A DNA stretch of 64,000 nucleotides from Escherichia coli (GTDB lineage: Bacteria; Pseudomonadota; Gammaproteobacteria; Enterobacterales; Enterobacteriaceae). The DNA is taken from NCBI RefSeq assembly GCF_036507355.1, contig NZ_AP027877.1; one strand, 5' to 3'. A program made the position numbers and the translations under genes. This document shows positions 11,579 through 62,067 of the stretch, one piece after another; positions within the stretch are counted from its first letter, which is position 1; every line of letters begins with the position of its first letter. The notes beneath the pieces are model-generated. The model saw nothing but the letters and a program-made list of their open reading frames with translations. It had not been told where the DNA came from and did not search any database.

Positions 11579-11628
11579 ATAGTGTTCCCTTTTATTTATT
11601 GTTCCGGCTAATTGTTATTTAATTCAGC

Positions 11629-35384: not shown

Positions 35385-36077
35385 CTAGTGATAACCACGC
35401 GCGGTCATAAAATCCGTAATCGCTTTTTCTGCATCAACCAACACCTGTTCCAGTGGCTGATTGGCATCGATATCAACCAGTTGTGCACCACCAAAGGTTA
35501 ACTGTGGCGTTATGGCAATCTTCCTCGCCAGCGATTCCCGTTTATGGTCGGGTTTACGCATGCAGGCAACTTCAAGGTCAACATTGAGTTTGATGACCAG
35601 ATCAGGCTTATGGCTCGCCATCCAGTGAAACGCTTTACGTTCCTGGCTTGCCAGCCATGAGACAAAACGACCACCTTCAACGTTAGGTGGGAACACCGTA
35701 CCATCGTAAGCGCCAGGAATTTGGTCCTGAGGATAACGGTCGGTTAGAACAATTAACCCGCGACGACGACAGGCAAGCATATGACGAAAGCGCAGTAAGC
35801 GACGGGCGACAAACGCTGTAATTACCAGCGCCGGAACTGGTCCAGGCAATTTTTTTGCTGTTTTCACCTGATTTCGTTCAATTGTTTTATGTAAGGATTT
35901 TCCCATCAACGGTAATTTTGTCACTGCACGACCGACATTTCCGGCCTGTTTTCCTAAATGAACTCTTTCGGCAGCACCATATTTTTCGACAACGGTAATG
36001 AGATGTTCACACACCGTTGACTTGCCTGAACCATCGCTACCAATAACGGCAATTAATGGAGGTGTTATTGACTGCAT
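35385..36077 (-). CDS. yghT: P-loop kinase-like protein YghT (thymidylate/nucleoside-kinase-like fold)
   Basis: 230-aa ORF; Walker [13 protein letters not shown]-type motif LTDRYPQ, C-terminal RKPDH motif shared with YghS/YghR. Confidence 0.85.
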
Positions 36078-36155
36078 GAATATATCCTTTAATTTAAATA
36101 TCCATTAAAAATATTTATTTGGTTAATATGTTTTTATGAAAGCGTAATTCAGGTC

Positions 36156-36183
36156 AATGTCACAATTAACCATTGTCACAATA
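36156..36183. promoter_or_regulatory. Candidate operator in the yghT/yghS divergent promoter region
   Basis: AATGTCACAATT and the perfect 11-bp palindrome ATTGT-C-ACAAT lie 16 bp apart in an AT-rich 173-bp divergent intergenic region. Confidence 0.3.
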
Positions 36184-36250
36184 AGGTTGAACGGATATTC
36201 TGAGCACGGACCACGTAATATTCAATACATTATTTGCTGCCGGGTTTTTC

Positions 36251-36964
36251 GTGAATCAACGTAATATGTCAATAATTAATTCCACGCCAGTGCGTGTTAT
36301 TGCCATTGTAGGATGTGATGGTTCAGGTAAATCGACCCTCACGGCAAGCCTGGTAAATGAACTGGCAGCAAGAATACCAGCAGAACACATTTATCTCGGG
36401 CAATCGTCCGGGCGAATTGGCGAATGGATTTCACAGCTCCCTGTTATTGGCGCACCTTTTGGGCGTTATCTGCGAAGTAAAGCGGCACATGTGCACGAAA
36501 AGCCCTCAACACCGCCTGGCAATATTACTGCGCTGGTTATCTATCTGCTTTCCTGCTGGCGGGCGTACAAGTTTCGCAAAATGTTGTGTAGAAGCCAGCA
36601 AGGCCATCTGCTCATCACCGACCGCTACCCGCAGGTTGAAGTGCCGGGTTTTCGCTTTGATGGCCCGCAATTGGCAAAAACCACGGGCGGTAACGGTTGG
36701 ATAAAAATGTTAAGGCAGCGCGAGTTGAAGCTGTACCAATGGATGGCGTCTTATTTACCCGTATTGTTGATTCGTCTTGGCATTGATGAACAAACCGCGT
36801 TTGCGCGTAAACCTGACCACCAACTGGCAGCGTTACAGGAAAAAATCGCCGTTACGCCGCAACTGACATTCAATGGCGCAAAGATCCTTGAACTGGATGG
36901 TCGGCAACCAGCCGATGAAATTCTGCAAGCGTCACTACGCGCAATTCACGCCGCGCTTTCCTGA
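36251..36964 (+). CDS. yghS: P-loop kinase-like protein YghS (paralog of YghT/YghR)
   Basis: 237-aa ORF; Walker A GCDGSGKST, ITDRYPQ, ARKPDH motifs. Confidence 0.85.
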   Translation: MNQRNMSIINSTPVRVIAIVGCDGSGKSTLTASLVNELAARIPAEHIYLGQSSGRIGEWISQLPVIGAPFGRYLRSKAAHVHEKPSTPPGNITALVIYLLSCWRAYKFRKMLCRSQQGHLLITDRYPQVEVPGFRFDGPQLAKTTGGNGWIKMLRQRELKLYQWMASYLPVLLIRLGIDEQTAFARKPDHQLAALQEKIAVTPQLTFNGAKILELDGRQPADEILQASLRAIHAALS

Positions 36965-36995
36965 TCACCAAAATGGATAGGGGATGATTTAACGA

Positions 36996-37754
36996 ATGGA
37001 TGCACTACAAACACAAACTGTTATTAGTACAACCGCGCCGCAGCCCAACTACATTCCGGGGCTGATTGCGGTGGTCGGGTGTGATGGCACCGGTAAATCC
37101 ACACTGACCACCGACCTGGTGAAATCGCTGCAACAACACTGGCAAACCGAGCGGCGCTATCTGGGGCTGCTCTCCGGCGAAGACGGCGACAAAATCAAAC
37201 GATTGCCGTTGGTTGGCGTCTGGCTGGAACGGCGACTGGCGGCCAAATCCTCGAAAACCCAAAGCATGAAAACCAAATCTCCGGCGCTATGGGCGGCGGT
37301 GATTATGTACTGCTTCTCGCTGCGAAGAATGGCGAATCTACGCAAGGTTCAGCGACTGGCGCAAAGTGGCGTTCTGGTGGTCAGCGATCGCTTCCCGCAG
37401 GCTGAAATTTCGGGCTTTTATTATGATGGACCGGGGATTGGCGTCGAACGTGCGACCGGGAAAATAAGCATGTTTCTGGCGCAGCGCGAACGGCGTTTAT
37501 ACCAACAAATGGCGCAATATCGCCCGGAATTAATTATTCGCTTGGGCATTGATATTGAGACTGCCATCTCCCGCAAGCCTGACCATGACTATGCCGAGCT
37601 GCAGGACAAAATCGGTGTTATGTCGACGATTGGCTATAACGGCACAAAAATTCTTGAGATTGATTCCAGAGCGCCCTACAGCGAAGTGCTGGAACAGGCA
37701 CAGAAGGCGGTTTCTCTGGTTGCCATCGTTTCTGACCGCCGAAGTTTAACTTAA
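36996..37754 (+). CDS. yghR: P-loop kinase-like protein YghR (paralog of YghT/YghS)
   Basis: 252-aa ORF; Walker A GCDGTGKST, VSDRFPQ, SRKPDH motifs. Confidence 0.85.
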   Translation: MDALQTQTVISTTAPQPNYIPGLIAVVGCDGTGKSTLTTDLVKSLQQHWQTERRYLGLLSGEDGDKIKRLPLVGVWLERRLAAKSSKTQSMKTKSPALWAAVIMYCFSLRRMANLRKVQRLAQSGVLVVSDRFPQAEISGFYYDGPGIGVERATGKISMFLAQRERRLYQQMAQYRPELIIRLGIDIETAISRKPDHDYAELQDKIGVMSTIGYNGTKILEIDSRAPYSEVLEQAQKAVSLVAIVSDRRSLT

Positions 37755-37799
37755 GGCTGGCGGGATACTTTTTACTATCAACGATAAGGTCAGGCTGAA

Positions 37800-39149
37800 T
37801 TGGCGGGTTTTAACATCAAACATTGGTTTGCAGATGGCGCGTTTCGCACCATTATTCGCAATAGCGCCTGGTTAGGCTCCAGTAATGTCGTGAGCGCCTT
37901 GCTGGGTCTGTTGGCGCTCTCGTGTGCCGGTAAAGGGATGACGCCCGCCATGTTTGGCGTACTGGTGATTGTGCAATCGTACGCCAAGTCGATCAGCGAT
38001 TTTATTAAGTTTCAGACATGGCAGCTGGTGGTTCAGTACGGAACACCAGCATTAACCAACAATAATCCGCAGCAATTTCGCAATGTCGTCTCATTTTCCT
38101 TCTCGCTGGATATCGTCAGCGGCGCGGTGGCGATTGTCGGCGGCATTGCCTTACTGCCATTCCTTTCCCATTCATTAGGTCTGGATGACCAAAGCTTTTG
38201 GCTGGCGGCGCTGTATTGCACGTTCATTCCTTCAATGGCTTCCTCCACGCCGACCGGCATTCTGCGTGCGGTAGATCGCTTTGATTTGATTGCTGTACAG
38301 CAGGCGACGAAACCTTTTCTGCGCGCAGCGGGGAGCGTCGCAGCCTGGTATTTTGACTTTGGTTTTGCGGGTTTTGTTATTGCCTGGTACGTGTCGAATC
38401 TGGTTGGCGGCACCATGTACTGGTGGTTTGCCGCGCACGAATTACGCCGCAGAAATATCCATAACGCCTTCAAATTGAATCTGTTTGAGTCTGCCCGACA
38501 CATTAAAGGCGCGTGGAGTTTTGTCTGGTCAACCAACATTGCCCACTCCATCTGGTCGGCGCGTAACTCGTGCAGCACAGTGTTGGTGGGGATCGTGTTA
38601 GGACCCGCTGCCGCCGGGTTATTTAAAATCGCCATGACATTCTTCGATGCCGCCGGAACGCCAGCGGGTTTGCTGGGTAAAAGTTTTTACCCAGAGGTGA
38701 TGCGTTTAGATCCGCGCACCACCAGACCGTGGTTGTTAGGCGTGAAGTCCGGTTTACTGGCGGGCGGAATCGGTATTCTGGTGGCGCTCGCGGTGTTGAT
38801 CGTCGGCAAGCCGCTCATTTCGCTGGTGTTTGGCGTTAAGTATCTCGAAGCGTATGACCTGATTCAGGTGATGCTGGGCGCAATTGTGATCTCGATGCTG
38901 GGTTTCCCGCAGGAGTCATTGCTATTGATGGCGGGAAAACAGCGCGCTTTTCTCGTGGCGCAAACCATCGCCTCAATCGGCTACATCGTATTGCTGTTCA
39001 TGTTCTGTCATCTGTTTGGTGTGCTGGGAGCAGCGTTTGCTTACTTCGGTGGGCAATGTCTGGACGTGGCGCTCTCGTTAATTCCAACCTTAAAGGCATT
39101 TTTTCAGCGCCATTCCTTGCTTTATAACGCAGCCGGAGAGAAATCCTGA
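37800..39149 (+). CDS. yghQ: Polysaccharide-biosynthesis/MOP-flippase-family inner membrane protein YghQ (apparently full length)
   Basis: 449-codon ORF from a TTG at 37800 (true start may be an internal ATG); highly hydrophobic multi-TM protein; I recall K-12 YghQ as shorter. Confidence 0.8.
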   Translation: MAGFNIKHWFADGAFRTIIRNSAWLGSSNVVSALLGLLALSCAGKGMTPAMFGVLVIVQSYAKSISDFIKFQTWQLVVQYGTPALTNNNPQQFRNVVSFSFSLDIVSGAVAIVGGIALLPFLSHSLGLDDQSFWLAALYCTFIPSMASSTPTGILRAVDRFDLIAVQQATKPFLRAAGSVAAWYFDFGFAGFVIAWYVSNLVGGTMYWWFAAHELRRRNIHNAFKLNLFESARHIKGAWSFVWSTNIAHSIWSARNSCSTVLVGIVLGPAAAGLFKIAMTFFDAAGTPAGLLGKSFYPEVMRLDPRTTRPWLLGVKSGLLAGGIGILVALAVLIVGKPLISLVFGVKYLEAYDLIQVMLGAIVISMLGFPQESLLLMAGKQRAFLVAQTIASIGYIVLLFMFCHLFGVLGAAFAYFGGQCLDVALSLIPTLKAFFQRHSLLYNAAGEKS

Positions 39150-39973
39150 TGATGAGAAAATATTTCCCGCTTGAGGCGAGCGAGCATCTATTTGTTGCGA
39201 TTGAGGAAGATGATGTTGTTGATGCCCAGGTCAGTTTGCCGCCGACTATCGCACTAAGTTGTACCACCGAAATCATCCATGATAATTACGCGTTATGCCT
39301 GCAATTCTGGCTCAATGGCGTTGATCGTCAGGAATTACTTCGTTTAATTCGCAAACAAGCCAAAGGCGATGAGCTGACGACAGACGAGCGTAAACAGTTT
39401 AAATACATGCGAGCGCGCTACAAGCATCTACGTTTTGCACAACGGCTGTATTTAAAAAAGCATCAGGCCAGATTTTTATTCGGCAAAACGACCGTTTTTC
39501 TGGGACGTTTTCAGGACGGATTTCGTAACGGTAAGAAAAATATTGTGTCGTATTACGGCAACCTGTTACGAATTTATTTAAGCTCTCCGGTCTGGTCGTT
39601 GGTGAACTATTCATTACGCCATAGCCAGTTAGAAAGCGTAAGCGGTTTTATTGCCTATCGGCAAAAGCAAATGCATACCCTGAAAGAGATTATTGCCAAA
39701 CCGCGACTAACCGGCAGGGAATTTCATGATGTGCGAAAAATCATCAGCCAGCAGGTTTCTTATTACGACACCTTAAGATCGCTTGATCCTGAAAATAAAG
39801 AGGCGTTACAGATTTCCCGTTTCCTCGCCGCCATTAATGGCCTGATGGGGGATCAACACGACGACATGGTGGCGGATGATATGGAAAACCGCCAGTCGTA
39901 TGATGCACCGGTGGCGCTGGATAGCGATATTCGCCAGCGCTTAGAGCTGCTGATTTCGCGTTTTCCGCTATAA
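39149..39973 (+). CDS. Hypothetical basic protein (274 aa), no family recognised
   Basis: ATG overlaps the yghQ stop (TGATG), implying translational coupling; ORF MMRKYFPLEASEHLFVAIEEDDVV...; within a same-strand gene array. Confidence 0.65.
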   Translation: MMRKYFPLEASEHLFVAIEEDDVVDAQVSLPPTIALSCTTEIIHDNYALCLQFWLNGVDRQELLRLIRKQAKGDELTTDERKQFKYMRARYKHLRFAQRLYLKKHQARFLFGKTTVFLGRFQDGFRNGKKNIVSYYGNLLRIYLSSPVWSLVNYSLRHSQLESVSGFIAYRQKQMHTLKEIIAKPRLTGREFHDVRKIISQQVSYYDTLRSLDPENKEALQISRFLAAINGLMGDQHDDMVADDMENRQSYDAPVALDSDIRQRLELLISRFPL

Positions 39974-39981
39974 CCGGAGCA

Positions 39982-40545
39982 ATGATGTCATCTCGTTTGA
40001 TTATTGCGCTGATTATCATGCTCTTAGCCCCGGGTGTGCAGGCACACAATTTCGTCACTGGCAAAACGGTTACCCCTGTTTATATTCAGGAAGGCGGCGA
40101 GCTGCTTCTGAATAGCGACGACGAAATTCACTACCAAAAGTGGAACAGCACACAATTGGCGGGAAAAGTCCGAATTATCCAGTATATCGCCGGGCGTAAG
40201 TCGGCGAAGAAAAAGAACTCACTGTTAATTAAAGCGGTTGAAGCGGCAAACTTTCCGCAGGATCGTTTTCAGCCCACCACCATTGTGAACACCGATGATG
40301 CCATCTTTGGTACTGGCTATTTTGTTGTTGGCAAAATCGAAAAAAATAAACGCCACTATCCGTGGGCGCAATTCGTTATTGACGGCAATGGACAGGGACG
40401 CGTTGCCTGGCGCTTGCCGGAGCAGAGTTCAACCATTCTGGTGCTGAATAAAGCCGGGCAAATTCAGTGGGCAAAGGACGGCAGCCTGACGCCGGAAGAG
40501 GTAGATCATGTTATTGCGCTGGCGCAGAAACTGATCAATGAATAA
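39982..40545 (+). CDS. YtfJ-family periplasmic protein (paralog of E. coli YtfJ)
   Basis: 187-aa ORF with signal peptide; HNFVTGKTVTPVYIQEGGELLLNSDDEIHYQKWNSTQLAGKVRIIQYIAGR closely parallels my recollection of the YtfJ sequence. Confidence 0.7.
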   Translation: MMSSRLIIALIIMLLAPGVQAHNFVTGKTVTPVYIQEGGELLLNSDDEIHYQKWNSTQLAGKVRIIQYIAGRKSAKKKNSLLIKAVEAANFPQDRFQPTTIVNTDDAIFGTGYFVVGKIEKNKRHYPWAQFVIDGNGQGRVAWRLPEQSSTILVLNKAGQIQWAKDGSLTPEEVDHVIALAQKLINE

Positions 40546-40575
40546 AAAATTCAAAGGATTGAGGGCGTTAGTGAG

Positions 40576-41646
40576 ATGAAGCTGGTTGAACACTACATCA
40601 TGCGTGGTACGCGCCGTCTGGTGCTGATTATCGTCGGTTTTCTGATCTTTATTTTCGCCAGCTACTCCGCACAGCGTTATCTGACCGAAGCGGCAAATGG
40701 GACATTAGCTCTTGATGTTGTGCTGGATATCGTTTTCTACAAAGTGCTGATTGCACTGGAGATGTTGTTACCTGTTGGTCTGTATGTGTCAGTTGGCGTG
40801 ACGCTAGGGCAGATGTATACCGACTCGGAAATTACCGCTATCTCTGCGGCGGGGGGCAGTCCGGGACGCTTGTACAAAGCCGTTCTTTATCTGGCGATAC
40901 CGCTAAGTATTTTTGTCACCCTTCTGTCGATGTATGGTCGTCCGTGGGCTTATGCGCAGATTTATCAACTGGAGCAGCAGTCGCAGTCGGAGCTGGATGT
41001 TCGCCAGTTGCGGGCAAAGAAATTTAACACTAACGATAACGGACGAATGATCCTTTCGCAGACGGTTGATCAGGATAATAATCGCCTGACTGACGCGCTG
41101 ATTTATACTTCTACTGCCAATCGAACCCGCATTTTCCGCGCCCGTTCGGTTGATGTGGTTGACCCATCACCCGAGAAACCGACCGTTATGTTGCACAACG
41201 GCACTGCCTATCTTCTCGATCATCAGGGGCGTGACGACAACGAACAGATCTACCGTAATCTGCAATTACATCTGAATCCGCTGGATCAAAGCCCTAACGT
41301 CAAACGCAAAGCGAAATCGGTCACGGAGCTGGCGCGCTCCGTCTTTCCAGCCGATCATGCCGAACTGCAATGGCGACAAAGCCGTGGCCTGACCGCATTG
41401 TTGATGGCGCTGCTGGCCATTTCATTAAGTCGGGTAAAACCGCGGCAAGGGCGATTTTCAACATTATTGCCACTGACGTTGCTGTTTATTGCCATTTTTT
41501 ATGGCGGCGACGTCTGCCGTACGCTGGTGGCTAACGGCGCGATTCCCCTCATTCCTGGTTTGTGGTTAGTACCCGGACTCATGCTAATGGGCCTGCTGAT
41601 GCTGGTCGCACGCGACTTCTCTTTGCTGCAGAAATTTTCCCGATGA
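40576..41646 (+). CDS. LptF/LptG-family (YjgP/YjgQ) permease paralog 1
   Basis: 356-aa ORF; N-terminal TM segments; region LEMLLPVGLYVSVGVTLGQMYTDSEITAISAAG parallels the LptF motif [29 protein letters not shown] recalled from memory. Confidence 0.8.
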   Translation: MKLVEHYIMRGTRRLVLIIVGFLIFIFASYSAQRYLTEAANGTLALDVVLDIVFYKVLIALEMLLPVGLYVSVGVTLGQMYTDSEITAISAAGGSPGRLYKAVLYLAIPLSIFVTLLSMYGRPWAYAQIYQLEQQSQSELDVRQLRAKKFNTNDNGRMILSQTVDQDNNRLTDALIYTSTANRTRIFRARSVDVVDPSPEKPTVMLHNGTAYLLDHQGRDDNEQIYRNLQLHLNPLDQSPNVKRKAKSVTELARSVFPADHAELQWRQSRGLTALLMALLAISLSRVKPRQGRFSTLLPLTLLFIAIFYGGDVCRTLVANGAIPLIPGLWLVPGLMLMGLLMLVARDFSLLQKFSR

Positions 41647-42722
41647 ATGTTTTCAGTCGCTATTTAATCCGTCATCTCTTTCTCGGTTTTGCCGCCGCCG
41701 CAGGGCTATTGCTGCCGCTTTTTACCACCTTCAACCTGATTAACGAACTGGATGATGTCAGCCCGGGCGGTTATCGCTGGACTCAGGCGGTGCTGGTGGT
41801 GCTAATGACCTTACCGCGCACACTTGTCGAACTTTCGCCATTTATCGCCTTATTGGGAGGGATTGTCGGCCTGGGGCAGCTATCGAAAAACAGTGAGCTT
41901 ACCGCCATTCGCAGCACGGGGTTTTCTATCTTCCGTATTGCACTGGTGGCGCTGGTTGCCGGGATATTGTGGACTGTTTCGTTAGGCGCGATAGATGAGC
42001 GGGTAGCGTCGCCATTGCAGCAACAGGCGCTGCAAATCAAATCGACCGCCACCGCGTTGGGGGAGGACGATGACATTACCGGCAATATGCTGTGGGCCAG
42101 GCGCGGCAATGAATTTGTGACGGTGAAATCGCTGAATGAGCAGGGCCAGCCTGTGGGCGTGGAGATTTTTCATTATCGTGACGATCTCTCGCTCGAATCC
42201 TACATTTATGCACGCAGTGCCACCATTGAAGACGACAAAACGTGGATCCTGCATGGTGTGAATCATAAAAAATGGCTGAATGGCAAAGAAACGCTGGAAA
42301 CATTAGATAATCTTGCCTGGCAATCGGCCTTCACCAGTATGGATCTTGAAGAGCTATCGATGCCGGGGAATACTTTTTCTGTCCGTCAGCTTAATCATTA
42401 CATCCATTATTTGCAGGAAACCGGGCAACCCAGCAGCGAATACCGCCTTGCACTGTGGGAAAAACTGGGGCAACCCATCCTGACCCTGGCGATGATTTTG
42501 CTGGCTGTGCCGTTTACCTTTAGCGCCCCGCGCTCGCCAGGGATGGGTAGCCGTCTCGCTGTAGGCGTCATCGTTGGCTTACTCACCTGGATCAGCTATC
42601 AAATCATGGTCAATTTGGGATTGCTATTTGCGTTAAGCGCACCTGTTACCGCGCTCGGTTTACCGATAGCGTTTGTGCTGGTGGCGTTGAGCCTGGTGTA
42701 TTGGTATGACAGACAACATTAA
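41643..42722 (+). CDS. LptF/LptG-family (YjgP/YjgQ) permease paralog 2
   Basis: ORF 41562-42722 trimmed to ATG 41643 (MNVFSRYLIRHLFLGF..., 359 aa) overlapping the upstream stop (ATGA); same architecture as paralog 1. Confidence 0.8.
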   Translation: MNVFSRYLIRHLFLGFAAAAGLLLPLFTTFNLINELDDVSPGGYRWTQAVLVVLMTLPRTLVELSPFIALLGGIVGLGQLSKNSELTAIRSTGFSIFRIALVALVAGILWTVSLGAIDERVASPLQQQALQIKSTATALGEDDDITGNMLWARRGNEFVTVKSLNEQGQPVGVEIFHYRDDLSLESYIYARSATIEDDKTWILHGVNHKKWLNGKETLETLDNLAWQSAFTSMDLEELSMPGNTFSVRQLNHYIHYLQETGQPSSEYRLALWEKLGQPILTLAMILLAVPFTFSAPRSPGMGSRLAVGVIVGLLTWISYQIMVNLGLLFALSAPVTALGLPIAFVLVALSLVYWYDRQH

Positions 42723-42723
42723 A

Positions 42724-42750
42724 CCCGCCGTGGCGCAACACCACGGCGGG
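42724..42750. terminator. Hairpin between convergent operons (putative bidirectional terminator)
   Basis: CCCGCCGTGG-CGCAACA-CCACGGCGGG perfect 10-bp stem in the 34-bp gap between the two convergent stops. Confidence 0.5.
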
Positions 42751-42756
42751 CTCACA

Positions 42757-43929
42757 TTACTGCTTCAGAGTAGCAAATGCCTGAATGATGGCATCGATTT
42801 GCTCACGACTGTGGGCAGCGTTTACGCTACAGCGCAGCAGCGTGATGCCTGCAGGCGCGGCAGGTGGCAGGATAAGATTCACATAAACGCCCAGCGAAAT
42901 AAGCTCGCGCCAGATGCGTAAACCTTCCTCTTTCGAACCGATTATTACCGGCACTACCGGACTAATATGTGAACTTAACTCATAACTCAGCTTTTGCAGC
43001 CCGTCATACAGATGGTTGGCATTATCCATCAGTTTTTGCCGCAACTCTGGTTGAGTGGCAATGGTTCTTAACGACGAGCGCACGGTTGCAATGCAGGAAG
43101 GAGAAGGGGAGGCGGTAAAAATATACGGACGACTGCCGTAGCGCAGCACTTCCATCGCTTCCGAACCCACGGCAAAACCACCAATAGAAGCCAGGCTTTT
43201 ACTGAAGGTGCCAACGATAATATCCACATCATCTTCAACGCCAACGGCTTCAACCAGCCCGCGCCCCGTTGCGCCTAACACGCCAAACGAGTGAGCTTCA
43301 TCGACAATTAAATATCCGCCGAGACGACGTTTGATATCAACAATTTCCGCCAGCGGCGCAACGTCACCGAGCATACTGTAGATGCCCTCAACGATGATAA
43401 TCGCCTCTTTCGCCCGTTCACCGAGGCGAACCATGCGCCGTTCCAGATCTTTAGCATCGTTATGGCGGAAACGAATAATTTCCGCGCCACCGAGAGAACA
43501 GGCGTCATAAATACTGGCGTGGCTGTCAGCATCCAGTAACACCACGGCGTTATGGTCGGCAAGTGCGCTGATGACGCCTAAATTAGCGGTATAACCGGTT
43601 GAAAAAACGATAGCGGTAGGGCGATTGAAAAACTCAGCAATCTCTTTCTCTAACGCCAGATGCGGCGCATAACTGCCGTTTGCCATACGAGAACCGGTGG
43701 TGCCGGTGCCTTGGGCCGCTAACGCTGCCTGACCTTCGGCGATGGCATCATGATTGAAGGTTAATCCGAGATAATTATTGGTCCCGGCCAGAATCACTTT
43801 TTTATTGCCGATCCGGCCTTCGGTGGCGGAATACACTTCATCAATACAGGTGCCAAACGGTGTTAACCCGTTGTCACTAAATTGCAGACGCTCGCCAGCA
43901 AGGCGCGCATATTTATCGTATAGCCCCAT
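42757..43929 (-). CDS. PLP-dependent alpha-oxoamine synthase, serine-palmitoyltransferase-like
   Basis: 390-aa ORF; DEAHSFGVLG and GTFSKSLASIGGF (PLP-lysine motif of the AONS/SPT/KBL family); ATG overlaps the stop of the upstream ACP gene. Confidence 0.85.
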   Translation of the reverse strand: MGLYDKYARLAGERLQFSDNGLTPFGTCIDEVYSATEGRIGNKKVILAGTNNYLGLTFNHDAIAEGQAALAAQGTGTTGSRMANGSYAPHLALEKEIAEFFNRPTAIVFSTGYTANLGVISALADHNAVVLLDADSHASIYDACSLGGAEIIRFRHNDAKDLERRMVRLGERAKEAIIIVEGIYSMLGDVAPLAEIVDIKRRLGGYLIVDEAHSFGVLGATGRGLVEAVGVEDDVDIIVGTFSKSLASIGGFAVGSEAMEVLRYGSRPYIFTASPSPSCIATVRSSLRTIATQPELRQKLMDNANHLYDGLQKLSYELSSHISPVVPVIIGSKEEGLRIWRELISLGVYVNLILPPAAPAGITLLRCSVNAAHSREQIDAIIQAFATLKQ

Positions 43930-44177
43930 TATTTATTCTCCAGCCATGGAAGTAGAGTTTCCATTAATTGCGCAGGGGTTTTGACATCCAGCAGAATATT
44001 AATAGGAATGGAAATATCGAATCTGTCTTCCAGCATCATTAAGAGATCCATCACTTTGATCGACTCCAGGCCAAGATCGTTGACGAGATCGCTGTCGGGC
44101 TTAATTTCCACACCGTTTTCGACCAAATCCTGTAAACAGGAAAGGATGTAATCCATTACTATTTCACGATTTACCAT
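43929..44177 (-). CDS. Acyl carrier protein (dedicated, non-AcpP)
   Basis: 82-aa acidic ORF with DLGLESIKVMDL phosphopantetheine-attachment-type serine motif. Confidence 0.8.
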   Translation of the reverse strand: MVNREIVMDYILSCLQDLVENGVEIKPDSDLVNDLGLESIKVMDLLMMLEDRFDISIPINILLDVKTPAQLMETLLPWLENK

Positions 44178-44208
44178 AGAAACGTTAACACACCTTTAAA
44201 CAAGACAA

Positions 44209-45123
44209 TCAAAATAGCCCGTTGCGTAATGCGTGTTCCAGGCTAATCCCGGGAAACCAATTAATATCTTCAGAAATACGGTTATTACTTGCCGACCAGT
44301 CGGCGTGGGTTAATTCACGAATTTTCGAGCGGGTCAGCATAGGTTCTTTACCTGCCAGGCGACTCAACGCGGTACTGATATCCGCAAGGCAGGTGAGTAC
44401 CGGCAGAGGAATGCCAACCATTCGCACGGAACCACAACGGGCGTCGGCGGCAAGTTGCTGTACGCGTTGCCAGTCATAGCCGCCAGCGACGCCATCGCAT
44501 AATTCATAGGTTTGCGTCTGTACAGTTTCGGCGCTTAACCACTGACCCACTGCTTGCGCAAAATCGGTGACATGCAGGAAAGAGAGCTGTGTATCTGGTG
44601 CACCAAGTCGTGGCAGCAGGCCGCGCAGCATCCAGTCAAACAGCGGTTTTAACTCTTTATCGCCGGGACCATACACGGCTGTCGGGCGAAAAACGCCCAG
44701 CGTAATTTCGTCAGCCATTGCCGTCAGCCGTTGTTCGGCGACGTGTTTGGAATTTGCGTACCAGGAGAGCTCGGGATGGCGCGCCGCCAGCGAAGAGATA
44801 AACAGAAAACGTTGGCAAAAGCCGCTCTCTTTTGCTGCTTGCATCAGGCGCAGGCTGCCGTCAACGTTACAGTGGGTAAAAATCTCTTCTTTGTGTCCGC
44901 GCACTTGCCCGGCGCAATGGACCACCGCGCTGGCTCCGGCAACCAGTTCGCTAAGCGAATGTGTATCTTCCAGCGAACCGCGCACCCAAGTAAGATTATC
45001 ATTGACGTGAGCGCGGGCAGTACGCGTCAATGCGCGAACGTGAAAGCCGCGGGCGAGCAGGTTATCGATAATATATTTACCGATAAAACCGGTAGCGCCC
45101 GTCACCGCGACAGTTTGATTCAT
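44209..45123 (-). CDS. NAD(P)-dependent epimerase/dehydratase-family (extended SDR) reductase
   Basis: 304-aa ORF; N-terminal VTGATGFIGKYI Rossmann motif; YANSK (YxxxK) catalytic motif; start overlaps the upstream stop (ATGA). Confidence 0.8.
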   Translation of the reverse strand: MNQTVAVTGATGFIGKYIIDNLLARGFHVRALTRTARAHVNDNLTWVRGSLEDTHSLSELVAGASAVVHCAGQVRGHKEEIFTHCNVDGSLRLMQAAKESGFCQRFLFISSLAARHPELSWYANSKHVAEQRLTAMADEITLGVFRPTAVYGPGDKELKPLFDWMLRGLLPRLGAPDTQLSFLHVTDFAQAVGQWLSAETVQTQTYELCDGVAGGYDWQRVQQLAADARCGSVRMVGIPLPVLTCLADISTALSRLAGKEPMLTRSKIRELTHADWSASNNRISEDINWFPGISLEHALRNGLF

Positions 45124-46841
45124 GCCAGGGATTCCTGCACATGAAGGCTTGCAGCATAAGCCTTCTGATAACGTTTTTTCGCTTCCGCACGGGCAGGCTT
45201 GCCGGAGGACGTTCGGGGAATGCTGTGGGGCGGCAACAGATCGATAGCCGCGGTCACGCCAAATTCGCTTTGGATCCGTGCTGCCAGCGCGTGGATAAGC
45301 TGCCCGCGACGTTCTTCATCGCTGATCCGACACTGGATCTGCAAAATGATTTTTTCCTGGACGGTAACAAAAGCAATCGCATCGCCAGAATGAATTTCCG
45401 GTTCCTGTTCCGCTATATATTCAATATCCTGCGGCCAGATATTACGGCCACGAATAATAATCAGATCTTTAATGCGTCCGGTGACATACAGATAACCATC
45501 CAGCAGATAACCGAGGTCGCCAGTGTCTAACCAGCCCGTCGCGGCAATCTCGTCTTGCGAAGCCTGGTCGCCAAAGTAACCGCTCATCAGACTGGGACCG
45601 GAGATGCAAATATGGCCTACCACACGTTCCGCGACCGGCATACCTGCTTGATTGCGGATTTCAATACCATGTTCCGGCAACGCTTTGCCGCAGTTGACGA
45701 AAGTCGATACGGCGCGTGTCTCTGCACCCGGCGCGACGGCTTTACCCTGATATTCGAGGATGTCGCGATCCACTTCGTTAACTACAACCCCGGAGGCTTC
45801 ATCAGAGAAGCTGACAGCCAGCGCATTTTCTGCCAGGCCGTAGCACGGCATGAAAGTTTTATCGTCAAAGTTAACCTGACGGAAACATTCAGCGAATTGA
45901 TGGAGTTGTTCTGCGGAGATGGGTTCTGCACCAATACCAGCGACGCGCCAGCAGGAAAGATCCAGTTCAGCGAGATCTTTTTCATTCACGCGGCGCTGGC
46001 ACAATTCATAGCCAAACGGCGGCGCAACGGAAACGGTGCCGCGATTTTTACTGATCAATTTAAGCCATTGCAGAGGACGCATGGCAAAATCCTGAGTGCG
46101 CAAATAATCTACTGAAAGTTGCGTGGCGACGGGGGTCAGGAGAAAGCCGACCAGTCCCATATCATGGTAGAAAGGCAGCCAGGAGACGCAGCGGTCGCCA
46201 GGGCGTAATTTAATGCCGTCGTGGCTTATAGCACGTAGATTAGCCATCACTTCGCGATGGGTGATAATGACGCCACGGGGAAAACGGGTGCTGCCGGAGG
46301 TGTACTGGAGGTAGGCGATATCGTTCGGAACTGGACGCTGGAGCGCAACATCGGCTTCCGGTAATGCCTTAAACCAGGCGTGGCTTAAAACATGTAATTC
46401 GGGGTTGTCATGCGTCGCGGCATTGACCAGTGGCAACCACTCATCACCAGTGATAATGGCTGCGGGCTGGCAACTTGTCAGTAAACCCTGCAATTTGGCG
46501 CTCCAGGAATCCCGCTGACCAACGCCCATTGGAATCGCCAACGGGACGGCGACTAAGCCGGCATACTGGCAGGCAAAAAAAGCCTCTACGAACCCGCTAC
46601 TTGTTTCGGCAATCAGTGCCACGCGATCGCCTTTTTTCAGGTTCAGCGATAACAACCGCTTCGCACCAGCTTCGGCACGCGCTTTTAACGTCTGATATTC
46701 CAGTTGATCTTCAAGTTGGCAACGTCTGTCATAAAAATTCATTCCAGCGCTACTCAGAGCGGCGTAGTCCAAAGCATCAACCAGCGTTGGAAAATCGGCA
46801 TAGCGTATAGGTAGGGAATGCGTAAAGATTTTATTAGACAT
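45120..46841 (-). CDS. Fatty acyl-AMP ligase / acyl-ACP synthetase (adenylate-forming enzyme)
   Basis: ORF 45120-46850 (GTG) trimmed to ATG 46839-46841 (MSNKIFTHSL...); AMP-binding core motifs YTSGSTRFPRGV and TGDLGY...GRIKDLIIIRGRNI. Confidence 0.85.
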   Translation of the reverse strand: MSNKIFTHSLPIRYADFPTLVDALDYAALSSAGMNFYDRRCQLEDQLEYQTLKARAEAGAKRLLSLNLKKGDRVALIAETSSGFVEAFFACQYAGLVAVPLAIPMGVGQRDSWSAKLQGLLTSCQPAAIITGDEWLPLVNAATHDNPELHVLSHAWFKALPEADVALQRPVPNDIAYLQYTSGSTRFPRGVIITHREVMANLRAISHDGIKLRPGDRCVSWLPFYHDMGLVGFLLTPVATQLSVDYLRTQDFAMRPLQWLKLISKNRGTVSVAPPFGYELCQRRVNEKDLAELDLSCWRVAGIGAEPISAEQLHQFAECFRQVNFDDKTFMPCYGLAENALAVSFSDEASGVVVNEVDRDILEYQGKAVAPGAETRAVSTFVNCGKALPEHGIEIRNQAGMPVAERVVGHICISGPSLMSGYFGDQASQDEIAATGWLDTGDLGYLLDGYLYVTGRIKDLIIIRGRNIWPQDIEYIAEQEPEIHSGDAIAFVTVQEKIILQIQCRISDEERRGQLIHALAARIQSEFGVTAAIDLLPPHSIPRTSSGKPARAEAKKRYQKAYAASLHVQESLA

Positions 46842-46850
46842 ATACACCAC

Positions 46851-47211
46851 GAAAAAATTGGATATCCAAAATAAAATGACAATAATGCGGTGGATTATAT
46901 AGGCATAAAAGATAAATGAGATAGTATTTTCATCGGTGTGAAAATGAACATTGATTTAAATAATGAGTTTAAGTTTTTTGTTTTTATTGTGAATGATATT
47001 TAATTTATGAATATATTAAGAAGAAGCCTTGTCCGGTCGCCTTAAATCGACAAAAGGCATTGTGGCGCTTCTGCGTAGTCGCTGACCCTATCGTAATCAT
47101 TAATAAATACTATTTATTCGTCGTTTGTATTCATTGGGTTGATTATTAAGATGCCGTTCGTTGCTGTTGCAACCTGTTTTTCACCGTTAATTATTTGTTA
47201 TCCACAGAACT
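46851..47211. promoter_or_regulatory. AT-rich divergent promoter region between the FAAL operon and yghO
   Basis: 361-bp noncoding stretch, visibly AT-rich with A/T tracts (e.g. TTTAAATAATGAGTTTAAGTTTTTTGTTTTTATTGTGAATGATATTTAATTTATGAATATATTAAG), flanked by divergent starts. Confidence 0.4.
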
Positions 47212-48354
47212 ATGGAATGCGATCTGCTGATGATCAAAATTGAAAAAGTAATTAATAAAAATGACCTTAAGGCATTTATTGCTTTTCCGTCATCACTTTA
47301 TCCCGATGATCCAAACTGGATACCCCCTTTATTCATTGAACGCAGCGAGCATTTGTCTGCGAAGAATCCGGGGACGGACCATATCATCTGGCAGGCGTGG
47401 GTGGCAAAAAAAGCGGGGCAGATAGTTGGGCGTATTACCGCGCAAATAGATACCTTACACCGCGAGTGTTACGGCGAAGATACCGGTCATTTCGGCATGA
47501 TTGACGCCATTGATGATCCGCAGGTTTTTGCCGCGTTGTTTGGCGCAGCGGAAGCGTGGTTGAAGTCACAAGGTGCAAGTAAGATCAGCGGGCCTTTCAG
47601 CCTGAATATCAATCAGGAAAGCGGATTACTGATTGAAGGTTTTGACACACCACCCTGTGCGATGATGCCACACGGCAAACCGTGGTATGCCGCGCATATT
47701 GAACAACTGGGTTATCACAAAGGCATTGATTTACTGGCGTGGTGGATGCAGCGAACCGATCTCACTTTCTCTCCGGCGCTAAAAAAACTGATGGTTCAGG
47801 TGCGCAAAAAGGTGACCATTCGCTGCATCAATCGCCAGCGGTTTGCCGAAGAGATGCAGATCCTGCGTGAGATTTTCAACTCTGGCTGGCAGCACAACTG
47901 GGGATTTGTGCCGTTTACCGAACATGAATTCGCGACCATGGGCGACCAACTTAAATATCTGGTGCCGGACGATATGATCTACATCGCTGAGATTGATTCT
48001 GCACCTTGCGCGTTTATTGTCGGCTTGCCAAACATCAACGAGGCGATTGCCGATCTGAACGGATCGCTCTTTCCCTTCGGCTGGGCAAAATTGCTGTGGC
48101 GTTTGAAAGTCAGCGGTGTGCGAACTGCGCGAGTACCGCTGATGGGCGTGCGCGACGAGTATCAGTTCAGCCGCATCGGCCCGGTGATTGCGCTGTTATT
48201 GATTGAAGCCTTACGCGATCCGTTTGCCCGCCGGAAGATCGATGCGCTGGAGATGTCATGGATCCTCGAAACCAATACAGGCATGAATAACATGCTGGAA
48301 CGCATTGGGGCGGAGCCGTACAAGCGTTACCGATTGTATGAAAAGCAGATTTAA
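47212..48354 (+). CDS. yghO: YghO-family protein, putative GNAT-like N-acyltransferase, intact
   Basis: 380-aa ORF MECDLLMIKIEKVINKNDLKAFIAFPSSLYPDDPNWIPPLF...; recognised as YghO family, which I recall as a disrupted pseudogene in K-12; acyltransferase assignment is from family knowledge, not from motifs I can verify. Confidence 0.7.
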   Translation: MECDLLMIKIEKVINKNDLKAFIAFPSSLYPDDPNWIPPLFIERSEHLSAKNPGTDHIIWQAWVAKKAGQIVGRITAQIDTLHRECYGEDTGHFGMIDAIDDPQVFAALFGAAEAWLKSQGASKISGPFSLNINQESGLLIEGFDTPPCAMMPHGKPWYAAHIEQLGYHKGIDLLAWWMQRTDLTFSPALKKLMVQVRKKVTIRCINRQRFAEEMQILREIFNSGWQHNWGFVPFTEHEFATMGDQLKYLVPDDMIYIAEIDSAPCAFIVGLPNINEAIADLNGSLFPFGWAKLLWRLKVSGVRTARVPLMGVRDEYQFSRIGPVIALLLIEALRDPFARRKIDALEMSWILETNTGMNNMLERIGAEPYKRYRLYEKQI

Positions 48355-58455: not shown

Positions 58456-59324
58456 GGTACGCCTTTATCCGTGACAACACCTGTTGCTGGCCTGTTCGCC
58501 TGCTCTGTCGGGTGCTGGATGTTCATCCCAGTGGTTTTTACGCCTGGCTTCAGCAGCCGCATTCACAACGCCATCAGGCAGACCTGAGGCTGACAGGGCA
58601 GATTAAACAGTTCTGGCTGGAATCGGGATGCGTCTATGGTTATCGCAAAATCCATCTGGATCTGCGGGACAGCGGGCAACAGTGCGGAGTGAACAGAGTC
58701 TGGCGACTGATGAAACGTGTCGGGATAAAGGCTCAGGTCGGATACCGGAGCCCGCGGGCACGTAAAGGCGAGGCCAGTATCGTGTCGCCCAACAGGCTCC
58801 AGCGACAGTTCAATCCGGATGCTCCGGATAAGCGTTGGGTAACGGACATAACCTACATCAGGACCCACGAAGGCTGGCTGTATCTTGCCGTGGTTGTTGA
58901 TCTGTTCTCACGCAAAATTATCGGCTGGTCCATGCAATCCCGGATGACAAAGGACATTGTCCTGAACGCACTGCTGATGGCTGTATGGCGCCGTAATCCC
59001 CAAAAACAGGTGCTGGTTCATTCGGATCAGGGCAGTCAGTACACAAGCCATGAGTGGCAGTCGTTCCTGAAATCACACGGCCTGGAGGGCAGCATGAGCC
59101 GTCGCGGTAACTGCCATGATAATGCGGTTGCAGAAAGCTTTTTCCAGTTGTTGAAACGCGAACGGATAAAGAAAAAGATCTACGGAACGCGGGAAGAAGC
59201 CCGCAGCGATATTTTTGATTACATCGAAATGTTTTATAACAGTAAGCGTCGGCATGGTTCCAGCGATCAGATGTCACCGACAGAATATGAAAACCAGTAT
59301 TATCAACGGCTCGGAAGTGTCTAG
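58416..59324 (+). CDS. IS3-family transposase OrfB (DDE integrase core), expressed as OrfAB fusion by -1 frameshift
   Basis: -1 frame is open from the slippery site; contains WVTDITYIRTHEGWLYLAVVVDLFSRKIIGWSM, HSDQGSQYTS and CHDNAVAESFF DDE-core motifs; the first in-frame ATG is at 58512. Confidence 0.85.
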   Translation, partial: KKSRGVLRKAVRLRYAFIRDNTCCWPVRLLCRVLDVHPSGFYAWLQQPHSQRHQADLRLTGQIKQFWLESGCVYGYRKIHLDLRDSGQQCGVNRVWRLMKRVGIKAQVGYRSPRARKGEASIVSPNRLQRQFNPDAPDKRWVTDITYIRTHEGWLYLAVVVDLFSRKIIGWSMQSRMTKDIVLNALLMAVWRRNPQKQVLVHSDQGSQYTSHEWQSFLKSHGLEGSMSRRGNCHDNAVAESFFQLLKRERIKKKIYGTREEARSDIFDYIEMFYNSKRRHGSSDQMSPTEYENQYYQRLGSV

Positions 59325-59339
59325 ATTACCCGTGGCGAT

Positions 59340-59555
59340 TCAGTCATCAGTAATTACGCTGTCATCCAGTTTCGCATAACAGATACTGTCATCACCGGCT
59401 TCAATATAGCTGGAAAAATTCTCACTGATGAAGCGGTAGAAAAGGGCACCGAGTACATACTGTTTAAAATCCCATCCATCTACGGAGCCTCTGACATCAT
59501 TGGCAATGGCCCAGATTTGGCGGTGTAGCTCTGCACGCTGCTGAAGGCTTGTCAT
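59340..59555 (-). pseudogene. hsdM: Truncated type I restriction-modification methyltransferase (hsdM) N-terminal remnant
   Basis: 71-codon ORF MTSLQQRAELHRQIWAIANDVRGSVDGWDFKQYVLGALFYRFISENFSSYIEAGDDSI... matches the N-terminus of type IC HsdM (EcoR124-like) as I recall it, then runs directly into the IS right end. Confidence 0.7.
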
Positions 59556-59758
59556 TTTGTATCCTGTTGTATGATTCTTAAGTACTGTTATTGGCCCGAT
59601 TTTATCGTAATTTCATATTGATGACAGGCTTTGTATGTCATACGTTGCACTGAGAGTTCGTTTGCCCGGTTGTGTAGGCAGCGCTCTTTCAGCCAGGTCA
59701 GTAGAAACGTTGCGCTGACGATAAATACTGAAGCCCCAATACCATCGGGGCTGAACGT

Positions 59759-61636: not shown

Positions 61637-61697
61637 ATGTTATATTAGCTGGCCTATTTTAATTTATTGCGTGTCGGTAGTACAGTCTTTGCACAAA

Positions 61698-62027: not shown

Positions 62028-62067
62028 GTTAATGTGATTTAATCATCACTAATAATATGTTGTGATT

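Follow-up and report, generated by a model that had tools for sequence, protein, structure and literature searches.

The window analysed here, 64,000 nucleotides of an E. coli-type chromosome, carries on its minus strand four tightly packed genes, aasR, cerR (epi), acpR and spt, with lptG2 on one side and yghO and glcC on the other (Table 1). In the first-pass annotation, two of the junctions between four minus-strand genes were overlaps (ATGA and TAATG) and the third a gap of 31 nt, and the ORF coordinates bear all of this out: the TGA of aasR (45122-45120) overlaps the ATG of the SDR gene cerR (45123-45121) in the ATGA at 45120-45123, the TAA of acpR (43931-43929) has one base in common with the ATG of spt (43929-43927) in the TAATG at 43927-43931, and the spacer between the cerR stop and the acpR start occupies 44178-44208. 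SD-like cores precede the starts of cerR (AGGA, spacing 9 nt) and spt (GGAG, spacing 8 nt); the sole one upstream of acpR is a distant AGGTG, 13 nt away. Stop/start codon overlaps are frequent in bacterial operons and, taken alone, are statistically unremarkable, but here they gain weight because the tight junctions and the gene order are conserved in six other loci. The order FAAL-SDR-ACP-SPT recurs in all six, at protein identities of only 31-84%, with FAAL-SDR junctions of -4 to +7 nt and ACP-SPT junctions of -14 to -1 nt; in one of them (L008) SDR and SPT are called as a single ORF, so that no separate ACP-SPT junction is counted there. The codon overlaps point to translational coupling at two junctions out of three, and such tight packing may favour translation of SDR along with FAAL and of Spt along with ACP; the stoichiometric co-expression that had also been proposed is not implied by overlaps. 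Right behind the spt stop, and overlapping that of lptG2, lies a hairpin with a 16-pair stem (10 GC pairs). At the other end, yghO and the operon are transcribed divergently out of one intergenic region of 370 bp with a GC content of 32% (51% in the whole window), in which a search for sigma-70-like promoters gave weak matches only, none beyond shuffle expectation, and an Rfam search gave no match.

Table 1. Features of the aasR-spt locus and its neighbouring island in the window
Feature	Position	Strand	Basis
yghT, P-loop protein	35385-36077	-	
yghS, P-loop protein	36251-36964	+	
yghR, P-loop protein	36996-37754	+	
yghQ, full-length, MOP-superfamily flippase	37800-39149	+	NCBIfam
274-aa protein, no known family	39149-39973	+	
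Periplasmic YtfJ-family protein	39985-40545	+	NCBIfam
lptF2, second LPS-export permease copy	40576-41646	+	TIGR04407 LptF, 318 bits, over cut-off
lptG2, second LPS-export permease copy	41643-42722	+	TIGR04408 LptG, 305 bits, over cut-off
GC-rich hairpin, probably bidirectional terminator	42720-42754	.	between convergent spt and lptG2
spt, serine palmitoyltransferase, PLP-dependent alpha-oxoamine synthase	42757-43929	-	equivalog, PDB, BL21 match
acpR, specialised acyl carrier protein	43929-44177	-	BL21 match, DLGLES
cerR / epi, extended-SDR reductase	44209-45123	-	Pfam, motifs, synteny, BL21 match
aasR / EcFAAL, fatty acyl-AMP ligase (dedicated acyl-ACP synthetase)	45120-46841	-	profile, PDB, BL21 match
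AT-rich divergent intergenic region aasR/yghO, presumed promoter/regulatory	46842-47211	.	composition
yghO (aca / bCerS homologue), presumed N-acyltransferase	47212-48354	+	fold model, literature identity

All motifs cited in the first-pass annotation are present: the adenylation motif LQYTSGSTRFPRGV in FAAL, GATGFIG and YxxxK (Y122-A-N-S-K126) in SDR, the serine-containing ACP motif (DLGLES, with Ser39 as the phosphopantetheine site) and GTFSKS in SPT. FAAL scores 873 bits against the NCBIfam model PRK09192 'fatty acyl-AMP ligase' (cut-off 600) and aligns without gaps over its full length to PDB 3PBK (1291 bits). The span proposed for the operon, 42757-46850, contains the four ORFs, but its upper end depends on the start codon: aasR may begin at GTG 46850 (576 aa) or at ATG 46841 (573 aa), the latter being more likely, because it has a GGTG 3 nt in front of it and because gene calls in Hafnia and Serratia begin at the corresponding ATG, which is followed there by the conserved stretch MRYADFPTL. 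GTG 46850 appears to fit the residue numbering of the EcFAAL paper. The RefSeq start of other strains including BL21, an ATG, is unusable in the window strain, as this codon 12 is ATA (Ile). The mycobacterial FAALs FadD32 and FadD28 and the Legionella FAAL 3KXW have family and mechanism in common with AasR (acyl-adenylate, CoA rejected, phosphopantetheinyl carrier), but feed PKS/NRPS carrier domains, whereas the E. coli acceptor is a stand-alone ACP from which the acyl group passes to a condensing enzyme that depends on PLP; the neighbourhood of the operon contains no PKS or NRPS gene. Holo-EcACP, presumably the ACP neighbouring EcFAAL, receives acyl groups from EcFAAL and its Ser-to-Ala variant does not (PMC8460268); Caulobacter AcpR is not acylated by E. 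coli AasR (PMC9386255).

Matches of acpR to ACP profile models are weak and all under cut-off, as one would expect of a specialised ACP. Spt exceeds the cut-off of the serine palmitoyltransferase equivalog NF047599 (595.6 bits, cut-off 500). The bioF, Kbl, CqsA-type and ALAS models were considered and rejected, all scoring below cut-off (334/426, 295/460, 221/428 and 215/338 bits, respectively). The Sphingomonas paucimobilis and S. wittichii enzymes (PDB 2JG2, 2X8U) are, like E. coli Spt, soluble bacterial SPTs of the homodimer type. Against 2JG2, Spt scores 375 bits, its GTFSKS lysine aligns with the PLP-lysine K265, and the equivalents of H159, D231, H234, K265 and R390 are kept; in place of Arg378 E. 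coli Spt has Leu, and Leu, Phe or Ile stands there in all ACP-operon SPTs sampled. In the external aldimine of the S. paucimobilis enzyme, R378 contacts the carboxylate of serine. Genomic arrangement differs as well, since in Sphingomonadaceae aasR lies far from acpR-spt, whereas E. coli has one operon. The SPT and the cysteate-C-fatty acyltransferase (sulfonolipid) of Bacteroidetes are also alpha-oxoamine synthases and produce long-chain bases for membrane lipids; E. coli Spt scores 260 bits against Sphingobacterium SPT, 202 bits against the cysteate acyltransferase and 335 bits with the CFB-type model, whose cut-off of 640 it does not reach. These Bacteroidetes systems are not known to have a linked FAAL and ACP. 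Their enzymes have been studied with acyl-CoA substrates.

The same locus is known from another strain, BL21(DE3), as ECD_02851-ECD_02854 (aasR, epi, acpR, spt) together with yghO, ECD_02850 (Padilla-Gomez et al. 2022, PMC9386255). AasR, SDR, AcpR and Spt of the window are 98.1, 97.7, 100 and 99.0% identical to their BL21(DE3) counterparts (11, 7, 0 and 4 substitutions), YghO is 98.9% identical, and the locus DNA 97.6%. The two strains also agree fully in the order of the genes, in their overlaps and in what adjoins them (lptG/lptF paralogues, YtfJ-like, yghQRST, glcC); downstream of glcA the window has an IS3 element and a defence island, whereas BL21 has sslE and the T2SS. BL21 AcpR (ECD_02853) carries 4'-phosphopantetheine, co-expression of the BL21 AasR, AcpR and Spt yields 3-oxo-sphinganine, identified for this all-E. 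coli trio by TLC co-migration, and L-[14C]serine is incorporated by Spt, whose preferred acyl donor is acyl-AcpR rather than acyl-CoA (PMC9386255). The biochemical checks suggested in the first-pass annotation, FAAL-to-ACP loading and amino-acid-dependent condensation, have thus largely been done already, being published for EcFAAL and for BL21 proteins 97.7-100% identical to those of the window. In Caulobacter crescentus, the locus-tag order CC_1165-CC_1162 (aasR, cerR/epi, acpR, spt) corresponds to that of the E. coli four, a separate N-acyltransferase gene, CC_1154 (aca/bCerS), lies close by as yghO does, and the cluster also includes a flippase and LptF2/LptG2 (PMC11324152). Reported identities between BL21 and Caulobacter proteins are 53% (Spt), 42% (AasR), 34% (Epi) and 44% (YghO and Aca). 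Both LptC2 and the ceramide phosphoglycerate head-group genes of Caulobacter are absent from the E. coli island, which instead contains YghR/S/T (thymidylate-kinase-like P-loop), the YtfJ-like periplasmic protein and the 274-aa orphan. We consider it very probable that aasR-cerR-acpR-spt is the known chromosomal E. coli operon forming the core of the proteobacterial sphingolipid (dihydroceramide) pathway. The first-pass reading is essentially correct, yet the operon has already been described (RefSeq annotation uses the gene name spt) and is not a new finding.

The chemistry first proposed, acyl loading onto the ACP, serine condensation to 3-oxo-sphinganine and keto reduction, holds in its first two steps for the near-identical BL21 proteins, but N-acylation was missing from it, and published models disagree on whether reduction precedes acylation. 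The pathway does not seem complete in four genes, the divergent yghO presumably supplying the N-acyl chain. YghO gave no match in Pfam and NCBIfam; its AF2 model (pLDDT 72.8) matches tandem-GNAT acyltransferases (Foldseek E 1e-13), and in Hafnia, Serratia and two further loci (L007, L008) its gene is likewise transcribed away from the operon. Fold, synteny and the identity to the Caulobacter gene point to YghO as the presumed enzyme adding an amide-linked N-acyl chain. The SDR matches the Pfam families Epimerase, NmrA and NAD_binding_10, complex-I NDUFA9 subunits are among its best PDB sequence relatives (ranks 2, 3 and 6), a likeness also reported for Caulobacter CerR, and all four distant homologues sampled (36-45% identity) sit between FAAL and ACP-SPT. 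Synteny, fold and 34% identity to the Caulobacter gene make it a presumed ceramide or 3-oxo-sphinganine keto-reductase. Its substrate is disputed and may be either free 3-oxo-sphinganine (Olea-Ozuna) or N-acylated oxo-ceramide (Stankeviciute/Klein; PMC11087976). We favour acylation before reduction: Caulobacter without cerR accumulates oxidised ceramide, and CerR behaves there as a periplasmic, peripherally membrane-bound protein, whereas Spt and bCerS are cytoplasmic (PMC11087976). The eukaryote-like order of the first-pass annotation, in which a cytoplasmic SDR reduces free 3-oxo-sphinganine to sphinganine before YghO N-acylates it, seems a possible but less likely course. Olea-Ozuna et al. 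proposed this order (summarised in PMC9386255), which is consistent with an SDR that opens straight into its Rossmann motif (MNQTVAVTGATGFIG), lacks a signal peptide and appears to be coupled in translation to cytoplasmic enzymes; reduction with NAD(P)H in the cytoplasm would also require no further electron donor. Since the E. coli SDR has no signal peptide, the periplasmic-reduction model of Caulobacter may not transfer to E. coli.

The operon is present in 4061 of 5426 complete E. coli genomes and missing from about one quarter, and K-12, which grows normally, has lost the whole region through an IS5-associated deletion. Sphingolipids are seen natively in Caulobacter but not in E. coli, our literature search found no report of a native E. 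coli sphingolipid, and extracts and lipid profiles of empty-vector BL21(DE3), which has the cluster, show neither detectable SPT activity nor 3-oxo-sphinganine (PMC9386255). The native operon appears silent or weakly expressed under laboratory conditions. These observations, together with the AT-rich promoter region devoid of a good sigma-70 match, could also describe a cryptic relic, whose enzymes act if over-expressed but whose native expression is never physiologically meaningful and leaves no native product. We regard this as improbable: all ten genes compared with BL21 are intact and under purifying selection (dN/dS 0.04-0.24), Hafnia and Serratia keep the entire gene set at 61-84% protein identity despite rearrangement and different flanks, and homologues of YghO and SDR occur in many Enterobacterales genera. 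Less probable still is a native use of another amino acid or a short acyl chain by Spt to give a non-sphingolipid amino-ketone (a CAI-1-like signal, an alanine-derived 1-deoxy base, or a biotin or threonine-pathway intermediate, for example), for although Leu replaces R378, the EcFAAL crystal held C12 and C14 adenylates, not C16, and AOS enzymes are known as promiscuous (PMC10196870), the SPT equivalog passes its cut-off where the bioF, Kbl, CqsA-type and ALAS models fail theirs, the 99%-identical BL21 enzyme put labelled serine into a product co-migrating with 3-oxo-sphinganine, the hydrophobic residue is common to all ACP-operon SPTs sampled, and the adjacent bCerS and CerR homologues make sense only for ceramide.

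In the favoured acylation-first pathway, AasR, unable to use CoA, would adenylate a free long-chain fatty acid and load its acyl chain onto the phosphopantetheine arm carried by AcpR, as near-identical proteins do; palmitate is active in assays, and the crystal structure contains C12/C14 adenylates. Spt, with PLP on the GTFSK lysine, would condense acyl-AcpR and L-serine to 3-oxo-sphinganine, CO2 and holo-AcpR, a reaction known from the 99%-identical BL21 enzyme. YghO would then N-acylate the long-chain base, as its Caulobacter Aca/bCerS homology and tandem-GNAT model suggest, and CerR would reduce the 3-keto group to give dihydroceramide. An island of roughly 13 genes, including lptF2/lptG2, the flippase gene and yghRST, is conserved in Enterobacterales. 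The lptF2/lptG2 pair, a candidate exporter of the lipid product, adjoins spt operons in Hafnia, Serratia and two other loci (L007, L010); a further one (L009) has one LptF/LptG-family gene, at a contig end. The genes for YghQ, the 274-aa protein and the YtfJ-family protein (dN/dS 0.04-0.07 against BL21) accompany the cluster in Hafnia and Serratia too, in unchanged order. YghR, YghS and YghT, which share a Walker A motif (GxDGxGKST), a DRYPQ motif and a weak thymidylate-kinase-like fold match, are paralogues; their identity to one another is 36-40% within the window and 32-46% when all three species are compared. Hafnia also has their genes beside its spt operon, as does Serratia, whose locus is rearranged; from synteny, the three may belong to the sphingolipid system. 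Judging by this conserved synteny, the MOP flippase, LptF2/LptG2, the YtfJ-like protein, the 274-aa protein and YghR/S/T would probably be responsible for modifying the lipid and for its export to the outer membrane.

The four genes investigated here are part of an Escherichia coli-type chromosome segment (pitB-yghTSRQ ... glcC-glcDEFGB-glcA) and form an operon belonging to the characterised proteobacterial system of sphingolipid synthesis, which the first-pass annotation had read correctly and which is already known. Four consecutive minus-strand open reading frames were found at the coordinates it had given, all gene positions being correct and only the upper end of the FAAL gene depending on the choice of start codon (46841 vs 46850). 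Reading the minus strand, we also observed the ATGA overlap at 45120-45123, the TAATG overlap at 43927-43931, in which the acpR stop and the spt start have one base in common, and the gap of 31 nt between the SDR and ACP genes. Every motif it had quoted is present, and the lysine of GTFSKS aligns with the PLP lysine K265 of the Sphingomonas paucimobilis SPT.

Coordinates of the operon, the surrounding island and the genes downstream of glcA
Feature	Coordinates	Strand	Remarks
Island of about 13 genes	35385-48354		yghT; yghS-yghR-yghQ (flippase)-orf274-ytfJ-like-lptF2-lptG2; spt-acpR-cerR-aasR; yghO
yghT, yghS, yghR (paralogous P-loop proteins)	35385-37754		36-40% identity in the window, 32-46% across three species
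274-aa protein	39149-39973		61-63% identity in the Hafnia and Serratia islands; dN/dS 0.06 (purifying selection)
Alpha-oxoamine synthase (spt)	42757-43929	minus	390 aa
ACP (acpR)	43929-44177	minus	82 aa
SDR (cerR)	44209-45123	minus	304 aa
Adenylate-forming enzyme (aasR)	45120-46841/46850	minus	573/576 aa
IS3-family transposase	58512-59324
DUF262/GmrSD-like protein	59759-61636	minus	625 aa; PADLOC HEC-05, 766 bits; in a 40%-GC stretch
WYL/HTH regulator	62068-62781
JukA-like protein	62884-63633

SD-like cores are located 8-9 nt 5' of the SDR and SPT starts, within the preceding genes, which is the usual arrangement in translational coupling. Stoichiometric co-expression, as had been deduced from the overlapping codons, is nevertheless an overreach: such overlaps do not imply stoichiometry, and acpR, which follows the 31-nt gap, is preceded by a poor SD. 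Scans for sigma-70 promoters and terminators gave counts not above those of shuffled sequences, a strong hairpin 3' of spt being the sole convincing element, and an Rfam scan of 42400-47400 (E up to 1) revealed no recognisable riboswitch or leader. The operon is separated from the divergent yghO by an intergenic region of 370 bp with 32% GC. The composition of the cluster (50% GC vs 51% for the window) does not suggest a recent horizontal acquisition.

The first gene of the operon, aasR, encodes a protein scoring 873 bits against PRK09192 (fatty acyl-AMP ligase; cut-off 600), and its alignment with the E. coli FAAL structure 3PBK, which holds lauroyl- and myristoyl-adenylate, is gapless and of full length, so that the FAAL-specific insertion is included. 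Three different start codons have been used for it (46808-46850). The ATG at 46841 (573 aa) is preceded by a conserved GGTG and is close to the 3PBK construct, and the gene calls for the FAAL in Hafnia and Serratia begin with an ATG at the equivalent site; from residues T83 and P107 we infer that the GTG at 46850 (576 aa) agrees with how residues are numbered in the EcFAAL literature. In other strains RefSeq uses an internal ATG (562 aa), but this codon is ATA (Ile) in the window and that gene model therefore cannot apply here. A FAAL feeding a PKS or NRPS was ruled out, as the neighbourhood contains no such genes.

EcFAAL was shown to form acyl-AMP, not acyl-CoA, and to move radiolabelled acyl chains to holo-EcACP, a transfer absent without ATP or with a Ser-to-Ala ACP (Patil et al. 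2021, PMC8460268). This EcACP, whose genomic position is not given in that paper, is presumably the neighbouring ACP of the operon. BL21(DE3) carries the same locus, whose genes were named aasR, epi, acpR, spt and aca (yghO) by Padilla-Gomez et al. (2022, PMC9386255); the proteins of the window are 98.1, 97.7, 100 and 99.0% identical to ECD_02851-02854, respectively, and YghO is 98.9% identical to its BL21 counterpart. E. coli AcpR bears 4'-phosphopantetheine, and co-expression of the cognate E. coli AasR, AcpR and Spt yielded a compound migrating as 3-oxo-sphinganine, from which the acylation of AcpREc by E. coli AasR was deduced; with the Caulobacter AasR, measurements showed a selectivity for AcpR over CoA (PMC9386255). 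E. coli Spt incorporates L-[14C]serine and strongly prefers palmitoyl-AcpR over palmitoyl-CoA or palmitoyl-AcpP (PMC9386255). Thus, the reconstitution that the first-pass annotation had put forward as a check exists in the literature (PMC9386255, PMC8460268) and supports its reading.

In the window, all components of the proteobacterial ('rhodobacterial') AasR-AcpR-Spt module were found: a match of Spt to the SPT model together with the catalytic residues, an ACP gene directly upstream of spt, and aasR in the same operon. Spt scores 595.6 bits against NF047599 (serine palmitoyltransferase; cut-off 500) and 375 bits against the S. paucimobilis SPT, with the equivalents of H159, D231, H234, K265 and R390 kept. 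Other alpha-oxoamine synthase activities were considered and rejected, since each of the corresponding models stays below its cut-off and serine incorporation has been published: BioF (biotin) reaches 334 bits vs a cut-off of 426, Kbl (threonine) 295 vs 460 and a CqsA-type model (CAI-1) 221 vs 428, while ALAS (haem) is dismissed with 215 vs 338. From their sequences, the AasR, AcpR and Spt variants of the window are predicted to form 3-oxo-sphinganine as reported for the BL21 orthologues.

E. coli Spt has Leu where the Sphingomonas enzyme has R378, and this residue is Leu, Phe or Ile across E. coli, Hafnia, Serratia and three distant SPTs encoded in ACP-containing operons, all of which keep Arg390 and the other catalytic residues. 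In the S. paucimobilis enzyme we take Arg378 to be a contact to the serine carboxylate; its absence from the other SPTs may be an adaptation to an acyl-ACP instead of an acyl-CoA substrate.

Up to 3-oxo-sphinganine, the chemistry proposed by the first-pass annotation is borne out by published work on near-identical E. coli proteins. AasR would convert fatty acid and ATP to acyl-AMP and pass the acyl chain to AcpR, and Spt would condense acyl-AcpR with L-serine to 3-oxo-sphinganine, CO2 and holo-AcpR, both steps having been shown for the near-identical proteins. YghO would add an amide-linked acyl chain and the SDR would reduce the 3-keto group, giving dihydroceramide. To regard the four genes as the whole pathway was going too far, as the putative N-acylation gene yghO lies outside them.

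The AF2 model of YghO (mean pLDDT 72.8, moderate confidence) found tandem-GNAT acyltransferases as its top matches in the PDB (Foldseek, E ~1e-13, TM 0.5-0.6). PDB sequence searches gave no significant match for YghO, YghS or the 274-aa protein. The match of the predicted fold fits the published assignment of YghO as the Aca/bCerS homologue and does not support the K-12 annotation as a putative DNA-binding regulator. Some YghO homologues carry PF00583, and an identity of 44% between YghO and CC_1154 is given in the literature. Divergent and adjacent to the operon, yghO was observed in the window, in Hafnia alvei and Serratia entomophila, and in two distant loci (L007 and L008), with 47-80% identity over these four other loci. 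In the Hafnia locus, yghO is adjoined by a gene for an Sfp-type 4'-phosphopantetheinyl transferase (PF01648, 6011-6736), which could be the AcpR-activating enzyme; the E. coli island contains no such gene.

The SDR, of the extended type, matches the Pfam families Epimerase and NmrA and contains GATGFIG as its GxxGxxG nucleotide site as well as Y122-K126 as the catalytic YxxxK. NDUFA9 subunits of complex I are among its best PDB sequence matches (E ~1e-11, ranks 2, 3 and 6), and NDUFA9 homology is stated for Caulobacter CerR (PMC11087976); the BL21 orthologue is 34% identical to Caulobacter CC_1164/CCNA_01222 (E 7e-38, 94% coverage). The order of N-acylation and keto reduction is disputed, one group placing the reduction first, as in eukaryotes, and the other the acylation (the model of Stankeviciute et al., Nat Chem Biol 2022, as cited in PMC11087976). 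Acylation first is supported by the oxidised ceramide accumulating in a Caulobacter cerR mutant and by the periplasmic location of Caulobacter CerR, Spt and bCerS being cytoplasmic (PMC11087976). As the SDR of E. coli lacks a signal peptide, our preference for acylation before reduction is a modest one.

Among 1.84 billion cluster representatives searched, 473 relatives of the SDR were found at E < 1e-30. In two separate homologue searches, with YghO and with the SDR, nearly all of the best 120 matches each came from Escherichia or other Enterobacterales where the source was named. To test whether the SDR, as the least certain of the four genes, belongs to the pathway, we used the contigs of four 50%-cluster representatives (ranks 3, 24, 85 and 149; 36-45% identity), and the order FAAL-SDR-ACP-SPT surrounds the SDR homologue in all four. 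A YghO homologue lies divergently upstream in two (L007, L008), LptF/LptG-family genes are nearby in three (L007, L009, L010), and all four of these non-enterobacterial loci have a DAGK-type kinase gene nearby instead of yghR/S/T. PP-binding genes precede spt in the Hafnia and Serratia loci as well as in L007, L009 and L010, and in L008, from a metagenome-assembled genome, an ACP-like match lies inside a single ORF of 794 aa (10001-12385) as which SDR and SPT were called. We did not take this SDR-SPT fusion as real, because the ACP-like match between the two parts sits in a different reading frame; the ORF could be a real fusion or a recoding, or else an assembly frameshift.

H. alvei and S. 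entomophila keep the whole E. coli gene set with 61-84% protein identity: yghO, the operon, lptG2-lptF2, the YtfJ-like gene, the 274-aa orphan, the MOP flippase and yghR/S/T. The transport block of Serratia still adjoins spt, although its orientation relative to that gene is reversed. Outside this set the flanking genes are different on most sides, but Hafnia and E. coli both have a gene for a PHO4-type phosphate transporter past yghT. Compared with BL21, nine of ten genes have a dN/dS of 0.04-0.24, indicating that they are maintained by selection; the tenth, the ACP gene, has the same DNA sequence in both.

Spacing among the plus-strand neighbours (37800-42722) is as tight as in the spt operon: the yghQ stop overlaps the orf274 start at 39149, the ytfJ-like gene follows after 11 nt and lptF2 after a further 30 nt, and lptF2 shares 4 nt with lptG2 (41643-41646). 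This arrangement suggests one operon for transport and modification that is convergent with spt. The synteny, together with an analogous proposal for Caulobacter, whose sphingolipid cluster contains CC_1155/1156/1166/1168 (PMC11324152), would argue for export by the adjacent flippase and LptF2/G2. YghR, YghS and YghT share the motifs GxDGxGKST, DRYPQ and RKPDH, have a predicted fold weakly resembling thymidylate kinase (low model confidence), and are still neighbours of the spt operon in Hafnia and, despite the rearrangement, in Serratia. The 274-aa protein had no sequence match in Pfam, NCBIfam, PHROG, PADLOC or the PDB, and PHROGs and PADLOC gave nothing useful for the proteins of the cluster.

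Downstream of glcA (58512-63633) the window departs from BL21 and K-12, in which sslE and the type II secretion genes follow; what is found there has the look of a small island for anti-phage defence. At least 80% of the 8 kb is covered by just one complete E. coli genome.

Of 5426 complete E. coli genomes, 4061 contain the 4.5-kb operon stretch with 95-99% identity, and in these RefSeq names the genes fatty acyl-AMP ligase, NAD-dependent epimerase, acyl carrier protein and spt, with yghO adjacent. In K-12 MG1655 (NC_000913, 3130146-3132408), an IS5 element (insH9) is flanked by yghO and a truncated yghQ, and aasR, cerR, acpR and spt are missing along with four neighbours (lptG2, lptF2, the ytfJ-like gene and the 274-aa ORF). 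No report of a native sphingolipid of E. coli or other Enterobacterales was found in our literature search. BL21 with empty vectors only displayed neither 3-oxo-sphinganine nor SPT activity, so under laboratory conditions the chromosomal operon seems to be silent or expressed at a low level.

As a whole, we regard it as a tentative and rather unlikely proposition that the operon is the biosynthetic core of a unit of about 13 genes conserved across Enterobacterales, in most natural E. coli and relatives such as Serratia, Hafnia and Citrobacter, which would make an exported ceramide-type lipid in some condition. The lipid would be flipped and, by an LptF2G2 machine dedicated to it, taken to the outer membrane; YghR/S/T might modify its head group, replacing the DAGK-type kinase of the four other bacteria sampled. 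In K-12 all this would be hidden, since the region was lost there by the IS5-associated deletion.

As a discovery the operon matters little, its genes being named in RefSeq, a crystal structure of the ligase being available and three of the four proteins having been reconstituted from a strain with 98-100% identity. Most natural E. coli strains, however, carry intact sphingolipid-synthesis genes under purifying selection, which the K-12 laboratory lineage lacks, and the presence of these genes in BL21(DE3) is relevant to SPT expression or lipid analysis in that host.
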